Part shown: positions 47,541-55,978 of the stretch, piece by piece
How positions within the stretch are numbered: position 1 is the stretch's first letter
Layout of the letters: the number at the start of each line of letters is the position of its first letter
Source of the DNA: Hyphomonadaceae bacterium UBA1849
GTDB taxonomy: Bacteria > Pseudomonadota > Alphaproteobacteria > Caulobacterales > Hyphomonadaceae
Assembly (NCBI GenBank): GCA_002338565.1
Contig: DDIN01000006.1
Span: 110,047 to 174,046, forward strand
Reading direction: 5' to 3'
DNA: 64,000 nucleotides
The notes under the pieces: model-generated
What the model was told of the DNA's origin: nothing
What the model saw: the letters and a program-made list of their open reading frames with translations, nothing else
The model's database searches: none
Translations under genes and position numbers: made by a program

Positions 47541-48293
47541 ATGCGCCTGCAACTTTCCACCTGGCCTGAAGTCGAAGCCTATCTTGAAAAATCGAAGGCA
47601 ATTCTGATACCCGTCGGCTCTACCGAGCAGCATGGTCCGACCGGCCTGATCGGCACAGACGCGCTCTGCCCGGAGATCATCGCCTTCGCTGCTGAGCAGA
47701 AAACAGACATGCTGATCGGGCCAACCTTCAATGTCGGCATTGCACAGCACCATCTCGGCTTTCCTGGAAGTATGACTTTACGACCTTCAACCATGATTGC
47801 TGCGATGAAGGATTGGACAGACTCCCTGATCCGGCACGGCTTCGAACGCATCTTCTGGTTCAACGGCCATGGCGGTAACACAGCAACGCTTCAGGCGGCT
47901 TTTGCCGAGCTCTATGCGGAACGTAGCTTCCAGCGCCCGGGCAGCAATTCACTTCCAGATCTACGCCTGAAGGCTAAGAACTGGTGGGAGATGCCTGGCG
48001 TAATGGACGAGTGCCGACGTCAGTTTCCGACCGGAGACGGCATGCATGCGACAGCATCAGAGGTCGCAGTCACCTATGCGGGCTACCCTGATCAGGTACG
48101 AAATGTGGAGATGTCTCCGAAGATCGCGCCGATTTCAGACTTCCGCGACGCGGACAATTACCGCGATAATTTTCCGGATGGCCGGATTGGTTCAGATCCA
48201 TCTCAGGCGACAGTGGAAAAAGGCGAGATTATCATTGAGGCAGCGGCCTCTTCTCTCGCCCGCGTCTTCCGAAGCTTTGCAGACGAAGCCTAG
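47541..48293 (+). CDS. Creatininase-family amidohydrolase
   Basis: PVGSTEQHGP..LIGTD, NGHGGN, HA..SE. Confidence 0.92.
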   Translation: MRLQLSTWPEVEAYLEKSKAILIPVGSTEQHGPTGLIGTDALCPEIIAFAAEQKTDMLIGPTFNVGIAQHHLGFPGSMTLRPSTMIAAMKDWTDSLIRHGFERIFWFNGHGGNTATLQAAFAELYAERSFQRPGSNSLPDLRLKAKNWWEMPGVMDECRRQFPTGDGMHATASEVAVTYAGYPDQVRNVEMSPKIAPISDFRDADNYRDNFPDGRIGSDPSQATVEKGEIIIEAAASSLARVFRSFADEA

Positions 48294-49639
48294 CTGTAGT
48301 GCATCAACACGTCATCAATGGCTCTCTCCAACTGCTTCAGGTTGGAGAGCATTGTGACGGTCGAACAGTGCGGGAAATAGCGTAGCATTTCGCTATCACC
48401 TGTTCCCCAAAGCGGACGCGCTTCCGGATTGAGCCAGACAATACGCTTCGTCTTGGCTGCCAGTTCCTCAAAGATATCAATGCGCGGGTCACCATGATTG
48501 GACCGCGCATCACCAAGAACGATAACGGTCGTACGTCGATCGATCTTGGACCAATGATCCACCTGAAGGTCTGATAGCGCCTGGCCGTAATCGGTGGAAC
48601 CCCAACCGATTTCCGCCAGAATCCGCTCCATAGCGCTTTCAAACCCGTCCAGTGACGTATCGAGATATGGTCCGACATCCTTGAGGCGGGCCGAGAAAGC
48701 GTAAGTGTGCAGGTCCGGCACGACATCGCGAACGCAATACAGGAACAGGAGCAAAAACCGAACAAACCGCGCAACTGAGCCAGAGACATCACAAATCAGA
48801 ACCAGCTTTGGCCGGTCTTTTTTTGTCTGCCTCCAATGGACATCAAACGGCACGCCGTCGCGACCTGCATTGGCCCTGAGCGTTTTGCGAATATCGAGCT
48901 GCCCGCGGTTCTTCTGGCGCTTGCGCCGCGAATGTTTGCTTACGAGGCGTTTGGCAAGTTTCTGAATGAGCGGCTTCATGCGCTCCATATCGGAGCGGTC
49001 CATCTCGTTGATGCGCTTATCGGCGAGAAAGTCTTCGCGGAACTGCTGCGTAGCGCCAGCACCAAAGACTTCAAATTGCTGTTTCGCAAACTCGATAGCC
49101 CGCGCCGTCATTATTTTGCGCGCGTCCATCATGCGTTCAGCTTCAGCATCGCCTTCAGGTGTGTGAGCCTGCAACTGCACCAGAAGCTCTGCTTCCATCT
49201 CGCGGACGCCCATCTCTTTGAGCATTTGCTGAGCATAATACGAGGTCTGGGTAGAGAAGCGTATATCCTGAAGACCTGATGCCTGCCCTGCACGCTCCAG
49301 CGCCATCTCAATGGCTGCTTCATCAGAACTTTCAGCGATATCCATGAAGTTCTGCGGTTCGCCAGAATCTTCGTCAGTATCCTGCTCTGCAGTCGTTGCT
49401 TCTTCGCTTTGCGCTTTCTTCTTTCTTTGAAAGAACAGTTCGAAGAGCCTGTCATAAGTATCTTTTTCGGCTTCGGACTTTGCCAGAACCGAGCGAAGCG
49501 CCGTTTTCAGAAACTCCCGGTCTTCGTATCCGACAAGATCAACAGCTTTTACCGCATCCAGCGTTTCAGCCGTTGAAACCTTCACATCAGCCGAGCGCAG
49601 CGCCCTCACAAAATCCGTGATGGTGCGTTCTGCGCTCAT
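48290..49639 (-). CDS. CoxE-type vWA domain protein
   Basis: FVRALRSADVKVS N-terminus, GQLDIRKTLR, CDVSGS (MIDAS), GSTDYG, VLGDARSN, WLNPE. Confidence 0.93.
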   Translation of the reverse strand: MSAERTITDFVRALRSADVKVSTAETLDAVKAVDLVGYEDREFLKTALRSVLAKSEAEKDTYDRLFELFFQRKKKAQSEEATTAEQDTDEDSGEPQNFMDIAESSDEAAIEMALERAGQASGLQDIRFSTQTSYYAQQMLKEMGVREMEAELLVQLQAHTPEGDAEAERMMDARKIMTARAIEFAKQQFEVFGAGATQQFREDFLADKRINEMDRSDMERMKPLIQKLAKRLVSKHSRRKRQKNRGQLDIRKTLRANAGRDGVPFDVHWRQTKKDRPKLVLICDVSGSVARFVRFLLLFLYCVRDVVPDLHTYAFSARLKDVGPYLDTSLDGFESAMERILAEIGWGSTDYGQALSDLQVDHWSKIDRRTTVIVLGDARSNHGDPRIDIFEELAAKTKRIVWLNPEARPLWGTGDSEMLRYFPHCSTVTMLSNLKQLERAIDDVLMHYS

Positions 49640-50637
49640 GACAGGCTGGGATATCCACTCGGAAGACGTTTGGATTCAGATGCAGAAGCCGCGTTACGCG
49701 CCATAGAGCCGACCGCATTGGAAGTAGCTTCAATGTCGCTTTCGTATTTCAGAAGCACATTGAGTGTCTTACGGACCATCGCCTCATCAAGGGAATCTGC
49801 ATGCATAAGCAGGAGCGTTCGCGCCCAGTCGACAGTCTCTGAAATCGAAGGTCGCTTTCGAAGGTCCTTAGTCCGGAGATCCTGAACGAACGACACCAGC
49901 TGCGTCAGGAGACTATCGGAAACATCCGGCACGCGCGCTCGCACAATTTCGCGTTCACGTGCTGCATCGGGAAAGCCGATATAGAGGTGCAGACAGCGGC
50001 GTTTAAGTGCATCCCCGAGGTCTCTTACATTGTTCGACGTAAGAATAACGATAGGCGGCACGTTGGCTTTAATCGTGCCTATCTCCGGCACCGTCACCTG
50101 ATAGTCCGAGAGCACTTCCAACAGAAAAGCCTCGAACACTTCATCCGACTTATCGATTTCATCAATGAGGAGCACAGAGCCACTTGTTTGTTCCATAGCC
50201 CGAAGTAGCGGACGAGGCTCAAGAAAGTCGTGCGAGAAGAACAGGTCTTCAAACGTCGCCAAACGACCTGTCAAATCTGCAATCGTGCCGGCATCGCCAA
50301 CGACGTCATTGAGGCGGTCTTTAAGAATCTGAGTGTAGAGAAGTTGCTTGCCGTATTTCCACTCGTAGAGAGACTTGCTTTCATCAAGGCCTTCATAACA
50401 TTGAAGGCGCTCAAGCGGCACATCTAGATATCGAGAAAGAGACTGCGCGAGGTCTGTTTTCCCCACGCCAGCCGGACCTTCGATCAGGATGGGCTTCCTG
50501 AGGTGGACGGCGAGATAGATCGCCGTCGATATTTCTTCACTGGAAATATAGCCAACTGAAAGCAGGCCTTCGGAAACCGCGGCGACGGAAGAGAGAGCCG
50601 AATACGTCTCCGCGATGAGGTCTTTATCTATCGTCAT
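49636..50637 (-). CDS. MoxR-family AAA+ ATPase (CoxD-type)
   Basis: EGPAGVGKT (Walker A), RLQCYEGLD, LLIDEIDK (Walker B), TSN, ALKRRC, KRPSISETVDW. Confidence 0.95.
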   Translation of the reverse strand: MTIDKDLIAETYSALSSVAAVSEGLLSVGYISSEEISTAIYLAVHLRKPILIEGPAGVGKTDLAQSLSRYLDVPLERLQCYEGLDESKSLYEWKYGKQLLYTQILKDRLNDVVGDAGTIADLTGRLATFEDLFFSHDFLEPRPLLRAMEQTSGSVLLIDEIDKSDEVFEAFLLEVLSDYQVTVPEIGTIKANVPPIVILTSNNVRDLGDALKRRCLHLYIGFPDAAREREIVRARVPDVSDSLLTQLVSFVQDLRTKDLRKRPSISETVDWARTLLLMHADSLDEAMVRKTLNVLLKYESDIEATSNAVGSMARNAASASESKRLPSGYPSLS

Positions 50638-50703: not shown

Positions 50704-51243
50704 TCAGGTCTTCTTTTCGTCCTCAACCGCTTCCGTTACGTCAGCTTCGGCCGGTTTCTCTACATCTTCGGCTGGTAAGGTTGATGCATCAGTTTCATCC
50801 GTTGTTTCAGTCTCTTCCGACGCGTCCTCGGTGCTATCAGGTTTGGATTCTGCTGTTGTGCTCTCGGCCTTCGTGGCGAAGCTCGGAAAACCGCCTGCGA
50901 ACAGACTGATCGCACCTGATATAGCGATGTAAAAGAAGAGTATGATCGAGCCGTACAACAAAAGCGTCGGCAGTGAGGCGAGATCAAAAAGTAGTGGCAA
51001 TCCGAATCTCAGTGCGAGAATCGCCGCCACAACAACGTGCCCAATATCGAGCAGACGATTTTCGACCTTTGCGATAAATCGCTGATAAGACGCCAGCAGC
51101 AAGCTTGCGATTGCCAGTATTATCGTAAGAATATCGAGTGGCTGGAGTTTGAACTGATATCCGATCATGATCATCCCGACGATGAATGCGATCGTTGCTA
51201 CAAAAATCAGTCCGGTTTTCCGGGATCCGGATTTTTCCGACAT
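50704..51243 (-). CDS. Four-TM membrane protein with acidic low-complexity C-terminal tail
   Basis: Four hydrophobic segments then a roughly 55-residue E/D/T/A/S-rich tail; 14 nt downstream of the preceding gene. Confidence 0.8.
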   Translation of the reverse strand: MSEKSGSRKTGLIFVATIAFIVGMIMIGYQFKLQPLDILTIILAIASLLLASYQRFIAKVENRLLDIGHVVVAAILALRFGLPLLFDLASLPTLLLYGSIILFFYIAISGAISLFAGGFPSFATKAESTTAESKPDSTEDASEETETTDETDASTLPAEDVEKPAEADVTEAVEDEKKT

Positions 51244-51257
51244 AAGCTTCCCTCTCT

Positions 51258-52784
51258 CTAATTTTCAGGCTCTGCAGGTTGGAAATATCTGAGCATGCGT
51301 TCTCTGAAACGCGCCGCCTGTTGCGCTGCAATATCGCCAGCAGGATCGTCCTGCGGCTCAAACAGGTCGGTCTCCGCGAGCCGCGAAGCAGATGAGGCCC
51401 GCCACGCCGCAAGATCGTTTTCAGGCGGGGTACCCAATCTCTGAAGCACGACCTGAGACGTCGCCCTCAGATAATCAATTATGGTAAGCGTGCGCCCTTC
51501 GGATCGGGACACAATACCGGCCAATGTCAGTCCCAACTCCATATCGTCGCCAGACACGGGTATCGTCTCACCACCGCCTGCTGACGCGATACTGCTAATC
51601 GAATCCTGAAGCGCTGCGTTCTCGGCGTCGGCCAGCCCAACTATGAAAAAGTTCGTATCTGTTTCTTCAACGTCTTCCGACTGCCGCGGGCGGAAATTCG
51701 CTCGAATCTGAGTTCTTAATTCGGCGTTTGGTCCCGTAACTCGAAGGAGGTAACGTCCCGCTTCTAAGCTGATGTACGCGAGAATACCCGTTCGGGAGTT
51801 CCAGTTGCCGCTTATATAGCTGTTAGGATCCGCCTCGGGATAAAGATACGCGGTTGGATATCCGATGCCGGTCGGCTCGACAGGCCGGAAGCTAAATTCA
51901 AGATGCCCCGCCACATCCAGCTCTACCGCAAGCCAGTCTGTATCGCCCCTGTAGGTATGAACATCTGAAACGGACTGATTGAGCGGAAAATAGCTCGCCA
52001 TATCAGGCGTATCGTTTGGTTCGAAGGCATCTCCAGGTGCACCGAGAGAGAACGACACACGCGCTGGACCATCGGGCGCACCATAGCGGTTTAATTGCAC
52101 CTCATATTCACCCGGGAACAGAGGAACAAGCGCTGAAGGGTCTACATCGCCTGTGTCAATAAACGGCAGTATCGAAACCGTTTCCCCTGTCTCGGTATTC
52201 AACACCTGGCCGGTAAACTGTGTTTGCACGTCGGAGAGGTTTTCATAACGGATACCAAGCGTGCTAAAGTCATCCACCTCAAGTGAGAAAACCGTTGGTG
52301 CGTTGCTGCCCTCAAGATGGACGGGATAGCTACCGCTCGCGCTAGGTGTTTGGACAACGTTAGCCCAATAGGCTTCCCCTATCGAGAGCGGTGCCAAATC
52401 CAGTTCAAAGCCGTATTCACCCACACCCGTTGGACTACTCACTCCGATGAAATGAATACCAGGCTCGACAATCTTGCGTTGAGAAACCGTACCCGAATCA
52501 TCCGTAATCGGGGCCGAAAGAGCCAGCTCTTCGTCATCACTCTTCAGCGTGAATTGAGGGAGCGTTCCTGAATCACCTCCAGCTGAATAACTTATACTGA
52601 GGCGTCCAGGACGGGTTACTTCGAGACGGAACCAGTCGACATCTTCGACACCTGAAACCTCTGTTGTCATCTCGAAATTGAGATAGGCAGCCCTTGCAAA
52701 TCGTGTGTCGTCATCTGGTTCCTGCGCTAACGCCGGCAACACTAAAACATTAGCTATCAGAAATGCACTCAAGACGCGGATCAT
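51258..52784 (-). CDS. Secreted protein with about three PPC-like beta-sandwich repeats and a vWA C-terminal-like fragment
   Basis: Signal peptide (ALA|QE); EDVDWFRL, DAFEPNDT, GDTDWLAV, PGEYEV and AGRYLLRV repeats; FFIVGL...IASAGGGETIPV segment. Confidence 0.8.
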   Translation of the reverse strand: MIRVLSAFLIANVLVLPALAQEPDDDTRFARAAYLNFEMTTEVSGVEDVDWFRLEVTRPGRLSISYSAGGDSGTLPQFTLKSDDEELALSAPITDDSGTVSQRKIVEPGIHFIGVSSPTGVGEYGFELDLAPLSIGEAYWANVVQTPSASGSYPVHLEGSNAPTVFSLEVDDFSTLGIRYENLSDVQTQFTGQVLNTETGETVSILPFIDTGDVDPSALVPLFPGEYEVQLNRYGAPDGPARVSFSLGAPGDAFEPNDTPDMASYFPLNQSVSDVHTYRGDTDWLAVELDVAGHLEFSFRPVEPTGIGYPTAYLYPEADPNSYISGNWNSRTGILAYISLEAGRYLLRVTGPNAELRTQIRANFRPRQSEDVEETDTNFFIVGLADAENAALQDSISSIASAGGGETIPVSGDDMELGLTLAGIVSRSEGRTLTIIDYLRATSQVVLQRLGTPPENDLAAWRASSASRLAETDLFEPQDDPAGDIAAQQAARFRERMLRYFQPAEPEN

Positions 52785-55700
52785 GGCGCATCTCCCAGCG
52801 CGCGATACGCTTGTTGCTCAGCTGATGATCTGGCAGTTTCGAAGTCACTTCCGGATAGGTCAGCCCATTGAGAACGGATGCGATCCATTCCGGCCTGTCC
52901 ACGAATGCATAAAGCAAAATCCAGCGTATCGGAGCTCGATGGCGTGCTGTTAACGCCGAACCGACGGCGTTCAGTTCCGTCTGCTGCCTGTGAAGCGCCA
53001 TAATACGTGTAGAAACGTTGCTTGGTCACTTGAGCGGCGCATTCATTGTCGCGCCCCCACTCTCGAAACCGGGTCTCGATCAGGACGAAAGTCGGCATGG
53101 ACTGACTCCCCACCTGCTCTACACGCCATGCTGTACGCTCATCTGGGTGAACAGCGACGACTTCTTCTTCCTCATCTTGTTCAGGCGGATCAGCTGGCTC
53201 GTCGTCACTCTCACCCGGATCGATCTCAGCAGAACTATTTCCAATATCGCCTAAAAGGTTAGCCTCACTCCTGAACTGAGCTGCTGCCGCTTGCGGGTCA
53301 CCACTGCAGCTTTCCTCTCCATCAGTGAGAACGATCAGGCTACGCCTGTCGTAGTGTGCAGACTCCAGAAGGAAGTTCCCACCCATTGTAATCGCAGCAG
53401 CGAGTGGCGTTCCTGATGCGTGATTGATGCCATCAATTGTTTGAAGCACCGCGGCTTTATCACGCGTAAAATCTGTCAGAAGCTGGATGTTTCCGCAGTC
53501 AAAAAACGCGAACACCGCGACTTCGTCGGCGTCTTCCATACTTGCCAGAAAACTACGTGCGCTGCGCCGTACATTTTGAATACCCGGCCCCGCCATCGAA
53601 CCGGATGCGTCCACAACGAAGACATAGCTTGTTCCGCCAGTACCAATGACATTGAGCTCGTGCCAGCGGTCCGGGCCGCCACTTCCGATCGCAGCGCCAC
53701 TTCTGACCGCTTCAGAATACGTCCAGTTTCCGTATTGGTTGGTACGTGCAGATGTTCGCGGATCGGCATCCAGATTTTTACCTGCGGCATCTGTTGCTGA
53801 GACTGTGATTTGGAGCGGTTCATTGCGCTCGAACTGGCCTCGCAATGGCCGAAGCGGAAAACGACCGTTCCAGCTGGCACCGCTTCCGGACAACTCAGCG
53901 AGGACTGAGCCCTCCATGTCGGGAAGTGGCAGTCCGTCACCGGCTGGTGCATCACTCCACGCGACGGCCGCCCCAGCGCCAATCTGGGCAGTGGGCGTTG
54001 CGGTGACAGGCTGAGAGAAAGCTAGCTGAATTTGCGCATAGCCGGAATTATCCTGTCTGAGCTGCTCATTGGTATGAACTGTAAGCTTACGCACCGCGGC
54101 CCCCGGAAGCTCTTCGCGCAATTCACGCAGCCGGTCTTCGGTCTCTGAACGTAAGTCGGCAAGCCTTACAAGGTCCCGCTCGACCATTCCCACGAAACCG
54201 CGATATCCGTCCCGCATAGCTTCCCAATAACGGATTTGAGCTAGATCATAAGCCATCGCGATATCAGCATTAGTTTCCCAGATATGGCCAACTAGCAGCG
54301 TGCGCGCCCATGAGTTTTCCCTATCTCTTATAGCAGAGTTCACGTCTTCCAGTGCCCAACCCGCCATCAGACTCGCCTGCATCTCGTACTGACGACGTGC
54401 ATTCATGGAAGCAGAAAAATCAAGCACTTCATTATTGTAGCTATCGATACGTCGAATGGCTCGACGCATACGCTCTTCAAAGCGACGTTGGTCGGCATCA
54501 TTATATCGCTCGGACACAGAATCCGCGAACAATGACCCGTCGACCGCGCCACTCACACCGCCATAAGTCTGATACAAGGTTATGCCAGCGGCAATCGGCT
54601 CAGTCAGGGTGTTTGCTGTCATGAGCATTTGGCGGGCTGTGTTTACATTCGAAACCACACCGAAAAAACGTCCCACCCGTTGTGCATATTCAGGCCAGAC
54701 GAGAAAATTCGGCAACCCGCTGGATCCAAGCGTCAGCCCCACGTTTAGCGCCGTCTGTCGAGGAACCTCGCGAGCAATAAATTGCGTGAGCGCCGCCCGT
54801 GTCACGTTGGCTCGCCCGACTGTCGCGATCATTGCCGTGGTTTCTAGATATACACCTTCAACGATGCTAGCAGGCGTGGCGATTAACAGCAGGAGCTGAC
54901 CGAAATTATACAGTCGGTCCGACCACAGAATGACGTCTTCATTCCATTCCAGCTCCTCACGAAGACCGGGAAGCTCTGCGAGCGCTATATTCACGGTACG
55001 TTGATACGTCGTCTGCTCCCTTAAAAGCTCTGCGCGCAGGTTCTCAAATCCGCGAAGCTGATTTTCCAGATCCTGAATGCTTGCAACAACCAGATCGTAT
55101 TCTTCAGTATTCTCACTCCAGGAGGCGCGATAAACTTCGCGACCGTCCTGGGAAATGACGATCTCTTGTAAGAATGGCGGGGCCGCATTTTCAGAAAGCT
55201 GCGCAGCTCTCTCCAGCAGGCCACCCAACTCTGCCTCACGCGCCCTCTTTTGTTCTTCGGCGCGAGATAGCGCTGTAGTCGCGGTCCGAACCTGAACCGT
55301 GGCCGTCTCTACCTCTGCATTGGCTCGGCTCACGGCAGTTAGAGCTCTATCCAGAGCAGACTGCCGCCCCTGACTGGCCCGGCCATAGCGACGGGCTTCC
55401 TCATCCAATTGGCGGCGCAAAGCTCTGATCTGGGCATCGAGAACATCCCCCTCAGAACCAGTGGCTGACGCACGTTGCCGCCGCAGGTCATCAAGCGCCT
55501 CCCGTGTCGCAGACAGATAATCAGAGGCAGATTGAGACGACAACGATCTGTCGCGTGCAATGCGAAGCCCTGTTTCCGCCGAACTAAACGCGCTACGCGC
55601 TTCGCGCAGATTTTGTTCTGCGGCTTCAAGCGCAGAACGCCTTGTGTCAATCACCGCTTGGGCTTGCTGGATTTCAGAGCGCTTCGCCGAGATCTCCTGA

Positions 55701-55840
55701 TAAACAGCCTGCACGGCTTGATCGTCGGAGTCCTGCCCTGACGCCAATGGAACCAGCATCAAAAAGGCAAAAAGCAACCACGCGCTAAGATATAGCGGCT
55801 TGGTTGAAGCGCGATGGCCAGACAAAAGACCTTGCATCAT
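52781..55840 (-). CDS. Large secreted protein: coiled coil, helical bundle, Ig-like domain and truncated vWA (MIDAS) domain
   Basis: Start placed at ATG 55840 after GGGGTGGA; signal-like h-region; FSQPV...ATDAAG Ig-like motif; VDASGS, GTPL, LTDGEESC. Confidence 0.85.
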   Translation of the reverse strand: MMQGLLSGHRASTKPLYLSAWLLFAFLMLVPLASGQDSDDQAVQAVYQEISAKRSEIQQAQAVIDTRRSALEAAEQNLREARSAFSSAETGLRIARDRSLSSQSASDYLSATREALDDLRRQRASATGSEGDVLDAQIRALRRQLDEEARRYGRASQGRQSALDRALTAVSRANAEVETATVQVRTATTALSRAEEQKRAREAELGGLLERAAQLSENAAPPFLQEIVISQDGREVYRASWSENTEEYDLVVASIQDLENQLRGFENLRAELLREQTTYQRTVNIALAELPGLREELEWNEDVILWSDRLYNFGQLLLLIATPASIVEGVYLETTAMIATVGRANVTRAALTQFIAREVPRQTALNVGLTLGSSGLPNFLVWPEYAQRVGRFFGVVSNVNTARQMLMTANTLTEPIAAGITLYQTYGGVSGAVDGSLFADSVSERYNDADQRRFEERMRRAIRRIDSYNNEVLDFSASMNARRQYEMQASLMAGWALEDVNSAIRDRENSWARTLLVGHIWETNADIAMAYDLAQIRYWEAMRDGYRGFVGMVERDLVRLADLRSETEDRLRELREELPGAAVRKLTVHTNEQLRQDNSGYAQIQLAFSQPVTATPTAQIGAGAAVAWSDAPAGDGLPLPDMEGSVLAELSGSGASWNGRFPLRPLRGQFERNEPLQITVSATDAAGKNLDADPRTSARTNQYGNWTYSEAVRSGAAIGSGGPDRWHELNVIGTGGTSYVFVVDASGSMAGPGIQNVRRSARSFLASMEDADEVAVFAFFDCGNIQLLTDFTRDKAAVLQTIDGINHASGTPLAAAITMGGNFLLESAHYDRRSLIVLTDGEESCSGDPQAAAAQFRSEANLLGDIGNSSAEIDPGESDDEPADPPEQDEEEEVVAVHPDERTAWRVEQVGSQSMPTFVLIETRFREWGRDNECAAQVTKQRFYTYYGASQAADGTERRRFGVNSTPSSSDTLDFALCIRGQAGMDRIRSQWADLSGSDFETARSSAEQQAYRALGDAP

Positions 55841-55978
55841 TTCCACCCCGAATCTGCTCATCGTCCGCCAGTGTATTGGCGCGGATAAGCTGAATTCCCG
55901 GCAACAATAGTGCGCCTGAAACCGTATTCTTTCAAGTTTGACCGAATTATTAGGCAAATCCCGTGGGTTTTCAGAGTT

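Follow-up and report, generated by a model that had tools for sequence, protein, structure and literature searches.

Can one protein domain of the vWA (von Willebrand factor A) type be encoded in two pieces, on two proteins that are exported separately? Domains of this type with a metal-ion-dependent adhesion site (MIDAS) are much-studied adhesion and docking modules, known from integrins, complement, pili and the partners of MoxR, and they are treated as single-chain units. The question is raised by two neighboring genes in a stretch of 64,000 nucleotides from Hyphomonadaceae bacterium UBA1849 (contig DDIN01000006.1, positions 110,047 to 174,046), which we call the window and whose own numbering is used throughout. 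Both genes lie on the minus strand; we refer to the upstream gene (52781..55957) as UP and to the next gene on the same strand (51258..52784) as DOWN, and use the same names for their products. Analysis of the two sequences and of their relatives supports the reading that a single vWA/MIDAS domain is divided between UP and DOWN, two translationally coupled and separately exported proteins. An initial annotation of this DNA had proposed such a division, and the coordinates and peptides that it gave for the two vWA pieces proved correct when re-read from the sequence.

The larger piece, the N-half, occupies UP residues 772-899 (53261..53644, minus strand) and comprises strand A, helix 1, strands B and C, helices 2 and 3, strand D and helix 4; residues 778-899, reading from YVFVVDASGSM to FRSEA, correspond to about 53261-53626. 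The MIDAS residues D783, S785, S787, T850 and D879 are all present on UP and are invariant in seven family members. The cysteine pair of the FDC and ESC motifs (C821 and C884), which the initial annotation had described as kept, is invariant across the family. The Pfam VWA model PF00092 matches UP residues 779-898 at 45.8 bits, as compared with a cut-off of 23.8 bits, and covers profile positions 3-130 of 174; in each family member tested the match ends at position 129-130. The short VWA_2 model PF13519 is matched over its full length. When the UP family alignment was compared with intact vWA domains by hhalign, the probability was 99.7%, with only template columns 1-134 of 188 covered. The AlphaFold2 model of UP, built from a ten-sequence alignment, has a mean predicted local distance difference test score (pLDDT) of 75.7 and a predicted template modeling score (pTM) of 0.46; its elements run from E13-24 to H129-134, so that the vWA fold ends at helix 4. 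Foldseek aligned about 140 columns of the model to solved vWA domains, with a target template modeling score (TM) of about 0.55 and E values of about 1e-6 to 1e-7. Profile, hhalign, AlphaFold2 and Foldseek coverage thus agree that UP does not hold the complete six-stranded fold, strand A to helix 6, in one polypeptide. The part from strand E to helix 6 is lacking after the N-half, as had been noticed at the outset.

Where, then, is the rest of the domain? The candidate lies in DOWN at residues 377-428 (51501..51656, minus strand), where strand E (NFFIVGL), helix 5 (AALQDSISSIASA), the triplet GGG, strand F (ETIPV) and helix 6 (DMELGLTLAGIVSRS) follow one another; residues 377-425, from TNFFIVGL to AGIV, correspond to 51510-51656. 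This segment comes directly after a short acidic linker (residues 367-376, 51657-51686, minus strand) and is the most conserved stretch of DOWN. We joined the N-half in silico to candidate segments and scored the chimeras against PF00092. The N-half of the window alone scored 50.1 bits with a profile reach to position 129. Addition of the DOWN segment raised the score to 63.0 bits (+12.9) and the reach to 152, while the positive control, the corresponding C-terminal part of the intact vWA protein P0010, gave 66.6 bits (+16.5) and a reach to 168. Four homologous pairs behaved in the same way, with gains of 8.6-14.1 bits: from 35.2 to 49.3 bits in L001 (reach to 151), from 47.2 to 56.3 bits in L003 (164), from 39.8 to 48.4 bits in L005 (168) and from 52.8 to 66.3 bits in L007 (166). 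Segments taken from five distant DOWN relatives and placed on the window N-half scored 56.8-62.6 bits and reached positions 155-166. The fifteen negative controls together changed the score by -0.9 to +5.2 bits. Two of them were shuffles of the DOWN segment, which changed it by about -0.8 bits (49.2 bits and a reach to 130 for the window chimera); the other 13 were natural segments of other window proteins, most of them starting with a hydrophobic strand, which gave -0.5 to +5.2 bits and never extended the match past position 144.

A second check used a local hidden Markov model (HMM) built from 14 intact vWA domains, with 3000 random natural 53-residue segments as the null. The DOWN segment of the window gained 10.9 bits, above all 3000 natural controls (mean 0.9, standard deviation 1.6, maximum 10.5), and 13 family segments gained 4.3 to 19.4 bits. 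An hhalign comparison of whole DOWN with a small vWA alignment found the right place at a weak P of 0.05; the broader profile of the segment against intact vWA domains lowered this to P=0.0036, with the best match at template 155-182. Judged by sequence, the DOWN segment resembles the absent portion of the vWA domain far more closely than chance would allow. At this level the gains in PF00092 and in the local HMM, together with the hhalign placement, locate that portion on DOWN, and the vWA profile coverage of the two proteins is complementary and non-overlapping, as the initial annotation had predicted. One of the two outcomes that it had named as fatal, a DOWN segment that does not align with vWA strand 5 to helix 6, did not occur at the sequence level; the other concerned the tail of UP itself.

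After the N-half, UP continues with the motif NLLGDIGNS (residues 900-908) and an acidic low-complexity linker to about residue 930 (53168..53260, minus strand), of which AlphaFold2 leaves 25 residues disordered (pLDDT below 50 at model residues 147-171). The motif, as (A)NLLGDIGNS directly after helix 4 (53234-53260), is nearly invariant in the family, with G903, D904 and S908 invariant. It forms a four-residue strand in the model and may serve as a placeholder strand, belong to the interface with DOWN or have some other role. The remainder, residues 931-1058 (52784..53167, minus strand), is a C-terminal domain of five long antiparallel strands and two helices, modeled at pLDDT 80-96 as a separate beta-meander of hairpin-connected strands plus the two helices. 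Its cysteines C973 and C1017 are invariant, and no relatives outside the family were detected among PDB sequences, Pfam and NCBIfam. This architecture allows a different account, in which the vWA domain of UP is complete in one chain, the linker and beta-meander form an insertion of about 110 residues between helix 4 and strand E, UP residues 1008-1055 (TLDFALCI, MDRIRSQWA, SDF and ETARSSAEQQAYRAL) provide strand E to helix 6, and the DOWN segment does something else. There are vWA domains with large insertions, such as those of the Mfa5 matches, and AlphaFold2 models the UP tail at pLDDT above 85 as a strand, a helix, a one-residue bridge and a helix. The scores point the other way. None of the five UP tails tried in PF00092 chimeras gave a gain (change -0.7 to 0; 49.4 bits and a reach to 130 in the window), eight UP tails fell inside the null of the local HMM (-0.8 to +3.9 bits), and hhalign placed the UP tail at an unrelated position of intact vWA domains with P=0.44. 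In the model, moreover, strand 1008-1016 comes a five-residue loop after strand 996-1002, in the manner of an antiparallel meander, and at a pTM of 0.46 there is no confident mutual packing of the half-vWA and the C-terminal domain. A half domain of the same kind in locus L018 has nothing after it, and an insertion in UP would leave unexplained why the best-conserved part of DOWN resembles the missing vWA piece. We consider the insertion an unlikely account. The second outcome named in advance, that the C-terminal domain of UP supplies the strands, is thus not what profile gain or the AlphaFold2 model indicates.

The division between two genes is itself a constant feature. In each of the nine loci, the distant one included, DOWN is the gene immediately downstream of UP, and the two overlap or lie within a few bases of each other. 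Near-identical contigs were counted once; the loci are four contexts from metagenomes or metagenome-assembled genomes (MAGs), two Ponticaulis genomes together with one metagenome contig, at 90-94% identity, a further MAG, and the distant pair L016. The locus of Ponticaulis koreensis DSM 19734 (L011) is 94% identical, and the source of the window is a marine stalked bacterium near Ponticaulis. In the window the ATG of DOWN overlaps the UP stop (ATGA at 52781-52784), and the junction, read in eight loci, is ATGA, TGATG or TAGGTGATG; in L019 the called genes overlap by four bases. The four-base overlap of the open reading frames (ORFs) could also speak for a single gene that was broken by a sequencing frameshift, or that is read as one through programmed frameshifting. 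The same break, however, occurs with three junction types in independent assemblies and metagenomes, the signal peptide of DOWN is conserved, three whole PPC domains stand between the two vWA pieces, and a fused product would bury the signal peptide in the middle of the chain. We therefore give this explanation almost no credence, and sequencing or programmed frameshift was rejected on the variety of junctions and the conserved DOWN signal peptide.

How far does the family extend? A word-indexed search with the C-terminal third of UP returned only six full-length relatives, followed by ordinary vWA proteins. A profile search of 1.84 billion representative proteins with the C-terminal 154 residues of DOWN yielded eleven proteins; every one is of the DOWN type and carries, ahead of the segment, a signal peptide and between one and three PPC domains. 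In the same 1.84 billion, the profile search found no intact-vWA protein that carries the DOWN tail and could represent an unsplit ancestor. The pieces might be relics of a broken ancestral gene that no longer meet, the UP half persisting as a reduced vWA module and the DOWN segment being reused within the C-terminal region of DOWN, for instance to bind a small membrane protein. A helical tail or a membrane anchor does always follow the DOWN segment, and a reduced vWA domain is on record, that of Giardia Rpn10 (PMC4352536), which was also the nearest item in a literature search that returned no paper describing a naturally split vWA domain. The vWA-like character is nevertheless kept in relatives at only 20-30% identity, which argues for selection on a role in the fold, and both the pairing of the genes and their coupled junction persist. 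As a general structural argument, a four-stranded half of a Rossmann-like sheet, deprived of two strands and two helices, would leave much hydrophobic surface uncovered. Taken together, we hold it improbable that the pieces are relics.

A divided domain that becomes whole again offers the better account, and we think it rather probable that the split vWA pieces rejoin after export and thereby dock UP to DOWN. In this mechanism UP would contribute the complete metal site and the elements from strand A through helix 4, and DOWN those from strand E through helix 6. After export, DOWN strands E and F would most likely join in parallel at the open edge beside UP strand D (residues 869-877), and DOWN helices 5 and 6 would cover the open faces of the sheet, so that a Rossmann-like vWA domain of six strands results. 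Once restored, this domain would serve as a tight, non-covalent joint by which the coiled-coil UP, of about 1000 residues, is docked onto the PPC-repeat protein DOWN, itself tethered to the membrane by a small four-helix protein or, in the L016 variant, by its own anchor. The overlapping or tightly spaced genes would favor equal amounts of the two products. The acidic linkers that flank both pieces could be self-ligands or mere spacers, and the C-terminal domain of UP might shield the open half-domain until DOWN binds. The physical joining of the pieces in an obligate heterodimer is an inference, as are its stoichiometry, its tethering to the membrane through the third gene and any ligand that the MIDAS may have.

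Several points weigh against this reading. Taken alone, the DOWN segment is not significantly vWA-like, with no meaningful match among PDB sequences for either its 58-residue profile or the C-terminal part of DOWN, no Pfam match and a modest hhalign P value. The order of elements that AlphaFold2 gives the UP tail, strand-helix-(strand)-helix, is one that might in principle close the vWA gap. The AlphaFold2 models are moderately reliable, since the alignments behind them are shallow (8-13 sequences). Finally, a hydrophobic stretch inside UP marginally passes the membrane-helix threshold in two homologs (P0005 and P0008); if it spans the membrane, the topology argument needs revision and the arrangement is more complex than "secreted".

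How does the proposed joint compare with known systems? The UP N-half resembles single-chain bacterial vWA/MIDAS proteins such as BatB (3ibs), the aerotolerance-related membrane protein of B. fragilis (4jdu) and the tip-pilin Mfa5 (6tnj, 6to1) in having the same fold, an intact DxSxS...T...D site and an exported or surface location. Those proteins are complete in one chain, whereas UP leaves the fold after helix 4 and the part from strand E to helix 6 is found on the product of the next gene. In donor-strand complementation, known from chaperone-usher and type V pili, a partner polypeptide completes an incomplete exported subunit and creates a very stable non-covalent joint. The proposed model shares with it an incomplete exported fold finished by another polypeptide. 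In pili, one strand completes an immunoglobulin-like (Ig-like) fold, with chaperone or protease steps and polymerization, while in the proposed 1:1 pair the donated piece would comprise two helices as well as two strands, and the domain that it completes would be Rossmann-like. Genes for a chaperone, an usher or a pilin were absent from the four locus contexts L001, L003, L005 and L007, and UP and DOWN have neither the Ig-like pilin fold nor the processing genes of a donor-strand-complemented pilus subunit, the incomplete fold being Rossmann-like. Split inteins and the "genes in pieces" of phages arise from insertion of inteins or homing endonucleases in cytoplasmic enzymes. As in those naturally split proteins, one fold comes from two separately translated ORFs; unlike them, the present case involves no mobile element, both pieces have acquired signal peptides of their own, and sizable additional domains stand between the pieces. 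The proposed joint departs from both precedents in its fold, in how large a piece is donated and in its gene context.

If the reading is true, it has several consequences. The allosteric signal of integrin I domains runs through their last helix. In the proposed complex the last vWA helix would sit on the partner DOWN with the metal site wholly on UP, so that coupling between partner binding and the metal site becomes directly testable. The pair would represent a new kind of obligate, possibly metal-dependent protein joint outside the cytoplasm, and a natural counterpart of engineered split-domain tags. It would also change the annotation of truncated matches to VWA_2 only, many of which may be half domains awaiting a partner.

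The two proteins are probably both exported, each by its own signal peptide. The UP ORF has 1058 codons from a TTG; the likely start, by match with the 95% identical homolog P0003, is the ATG at 55861 (M33, MSRFGVEMM...). From its N-terminus UP consists of a signal peptide or anchor, a long coiled coil, a helical region, an Ig-like domain, the vWA N-half, the acidic linker and the C-terminal beta domain. Residues 53-75 are the only hydrophobic segment over threshold. A further hydrophobic stretch, LYNFGQLLLLIATPASIVEGVYL, is conserved at residues of about 360-400 (54800-54900 in the window, minus strand) and here stays under the membrane-helix threshold. The mature protein has four cysteines, all invariant and all in the C-terminal part, a pattern that fits an oxidizing compartment. 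The initial annotation had mentioned a second cysteine pair in some homologs (DPC ... C-IA); the one close intact relative examined, P0010, has no cysteine at those positions.

DOWN has 508 residues. Its signal peptide, MIRVLSAFLIANVLVLPALA followed by QE (52725..52784, minus strand), includes a hydrophobic segment at residues 1-22 and, by reading, a cleavage site of the A-x-A type, and equivalent N-termini are present in all homologs. Residues 30-366 (51687..52697, minus strand) form three beta-sandwiches like the PPC or collagen-binding domain, as modeled by AlphaFold2 and matched by Foldseek. They match the tandem collagen-binding domain of ColG (5iku) with E=7.7e-10, and the single-domain matches have TM 0.66-0.77, with 1nqj, 5sv5 and 1nqd at 0.73-0.77, so that DOWN has the ColG s3-type sandwich fold. 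Compared with the tandem PPC domains of ColG (5iku, 1nqd), the three sandwiches of DOWN are attached not to a peptidase but to a vWA fragment and a helical tail. The Pfam PPC model (PF04151) scores the DOWN protein of the window at E=0.001 and 20.3 bits, under the cut-off of 25.9 bits, and matches four of five DOWN homologs; whole DOWN proteins have PPC as their only Pfam match, with no vWA match. The AlphaFold2 model shows the vWA segment as a strand at 380-381, a helix at 390-402, a strand at 406-407 and a helix at 414-428, all at pLDDT 50-64, and this strand-helix-strand-helix unit is not packed on the three well-predicted sandwiches. A helical tail, residues 429-508 (51261..51500, minus strand), ends the protein. 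Two generic PPC-repeat proteins, in L015 and L017, were considered as family members and rejected.

The distant pair L016 (L016:3-3676) has a TGATG junction and is 28-30% identical. Its UP-like protein has a different N-terminal part and the same end, a half-vWA, a linker and a beta-domain. Its DOWN-like protein is shorter (327 residues), with fewer PPC domains, and the segment runs directly into a C-terminal transmembrane anchor, which takes the place of the helical tail.

A third gene completes the cassette at 50704..51243 (minus strand). Its product of 179 residues has four predicted membrane helices, read from the sequence, and a very acidic 60-residue tail. By tblastn, a small homologous gene is present after DOWN in seven further loci, and in L005 the position is occupied by an unmatched gene of 138 residues. 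In relatives the product measures 138-185 residues and its tail is variable.

Is the arrangement confined to this family? The closest vWA match of UP outside the family is P0009 (L018:157-2522), a repeat-rich exported protein with an entirely different N-terminal part. The N-half of its vWA domain, with the end ...TDGEESCSGDLMQAVGE, is terminated by a genuine TGA right after ...VVLTDGEESCSGDLMQAVGE, early in helix 4. P0009 therefore lacks a domain of its own that could complete the fold in cis. At 35 nucleotides past this stop there is a ribosome-binding site and an ORF with a signal peptide, beginning MGRAVSLGRLLLPALLVASSAAAQ, and there the contig ends. Some DOWN-type proteins, for their part, have only about 300 residues, made up of a signal peptide, a single PPC domain, then the segment and a helical tail. 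It is conceivable that the split vWA serves generally as a reusable docking module, in which one exported protein carries the metal-site half and a PPC-bearing, membrane-tethered partner carries a strand-helix-strand-helix "key". Various bacteria would build envelope or surface complexes with it, the MIDAS becoming competent only once both halves meet, and L018 and the DOWN relatives of about 300 residues would be members of one widespread undescribed system. We offer this generalization tentatively, judging it somewhat closer to doubtful than to probable.

Directly downstream of the cassette in the window lie genes for a MoxR-type AAA+ protein (49636-50637) and a CoxE-type vWA protein (48290-49639), both on the minus strand. 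They form a MoxR-vWA pair of the CoxD/CoxE type, whose vWA domain is complete and cytoplasmic; the pair adjoins the cassette and is not a part of it. It is absent in L003 and L005, has three unrelated genes between it and the cassette in L001 and a single gene in L007, and adjoins the cassette only in close Ponticaulis-like relatives. A five-gene vWA/MoxR system that includes UP and DOWN was rejected, as this linkage is not conserved; the conserved unit is accordingly three genes, not five. Elsewhere the MoxR/CoxE pair accompanies genes for XdhC/CoxI, molybdenum hydroxylase subunits and molybdenum-cofactor biosynthesis, and it probably serves a molybdoenzyme rather than the split-vWA pair.

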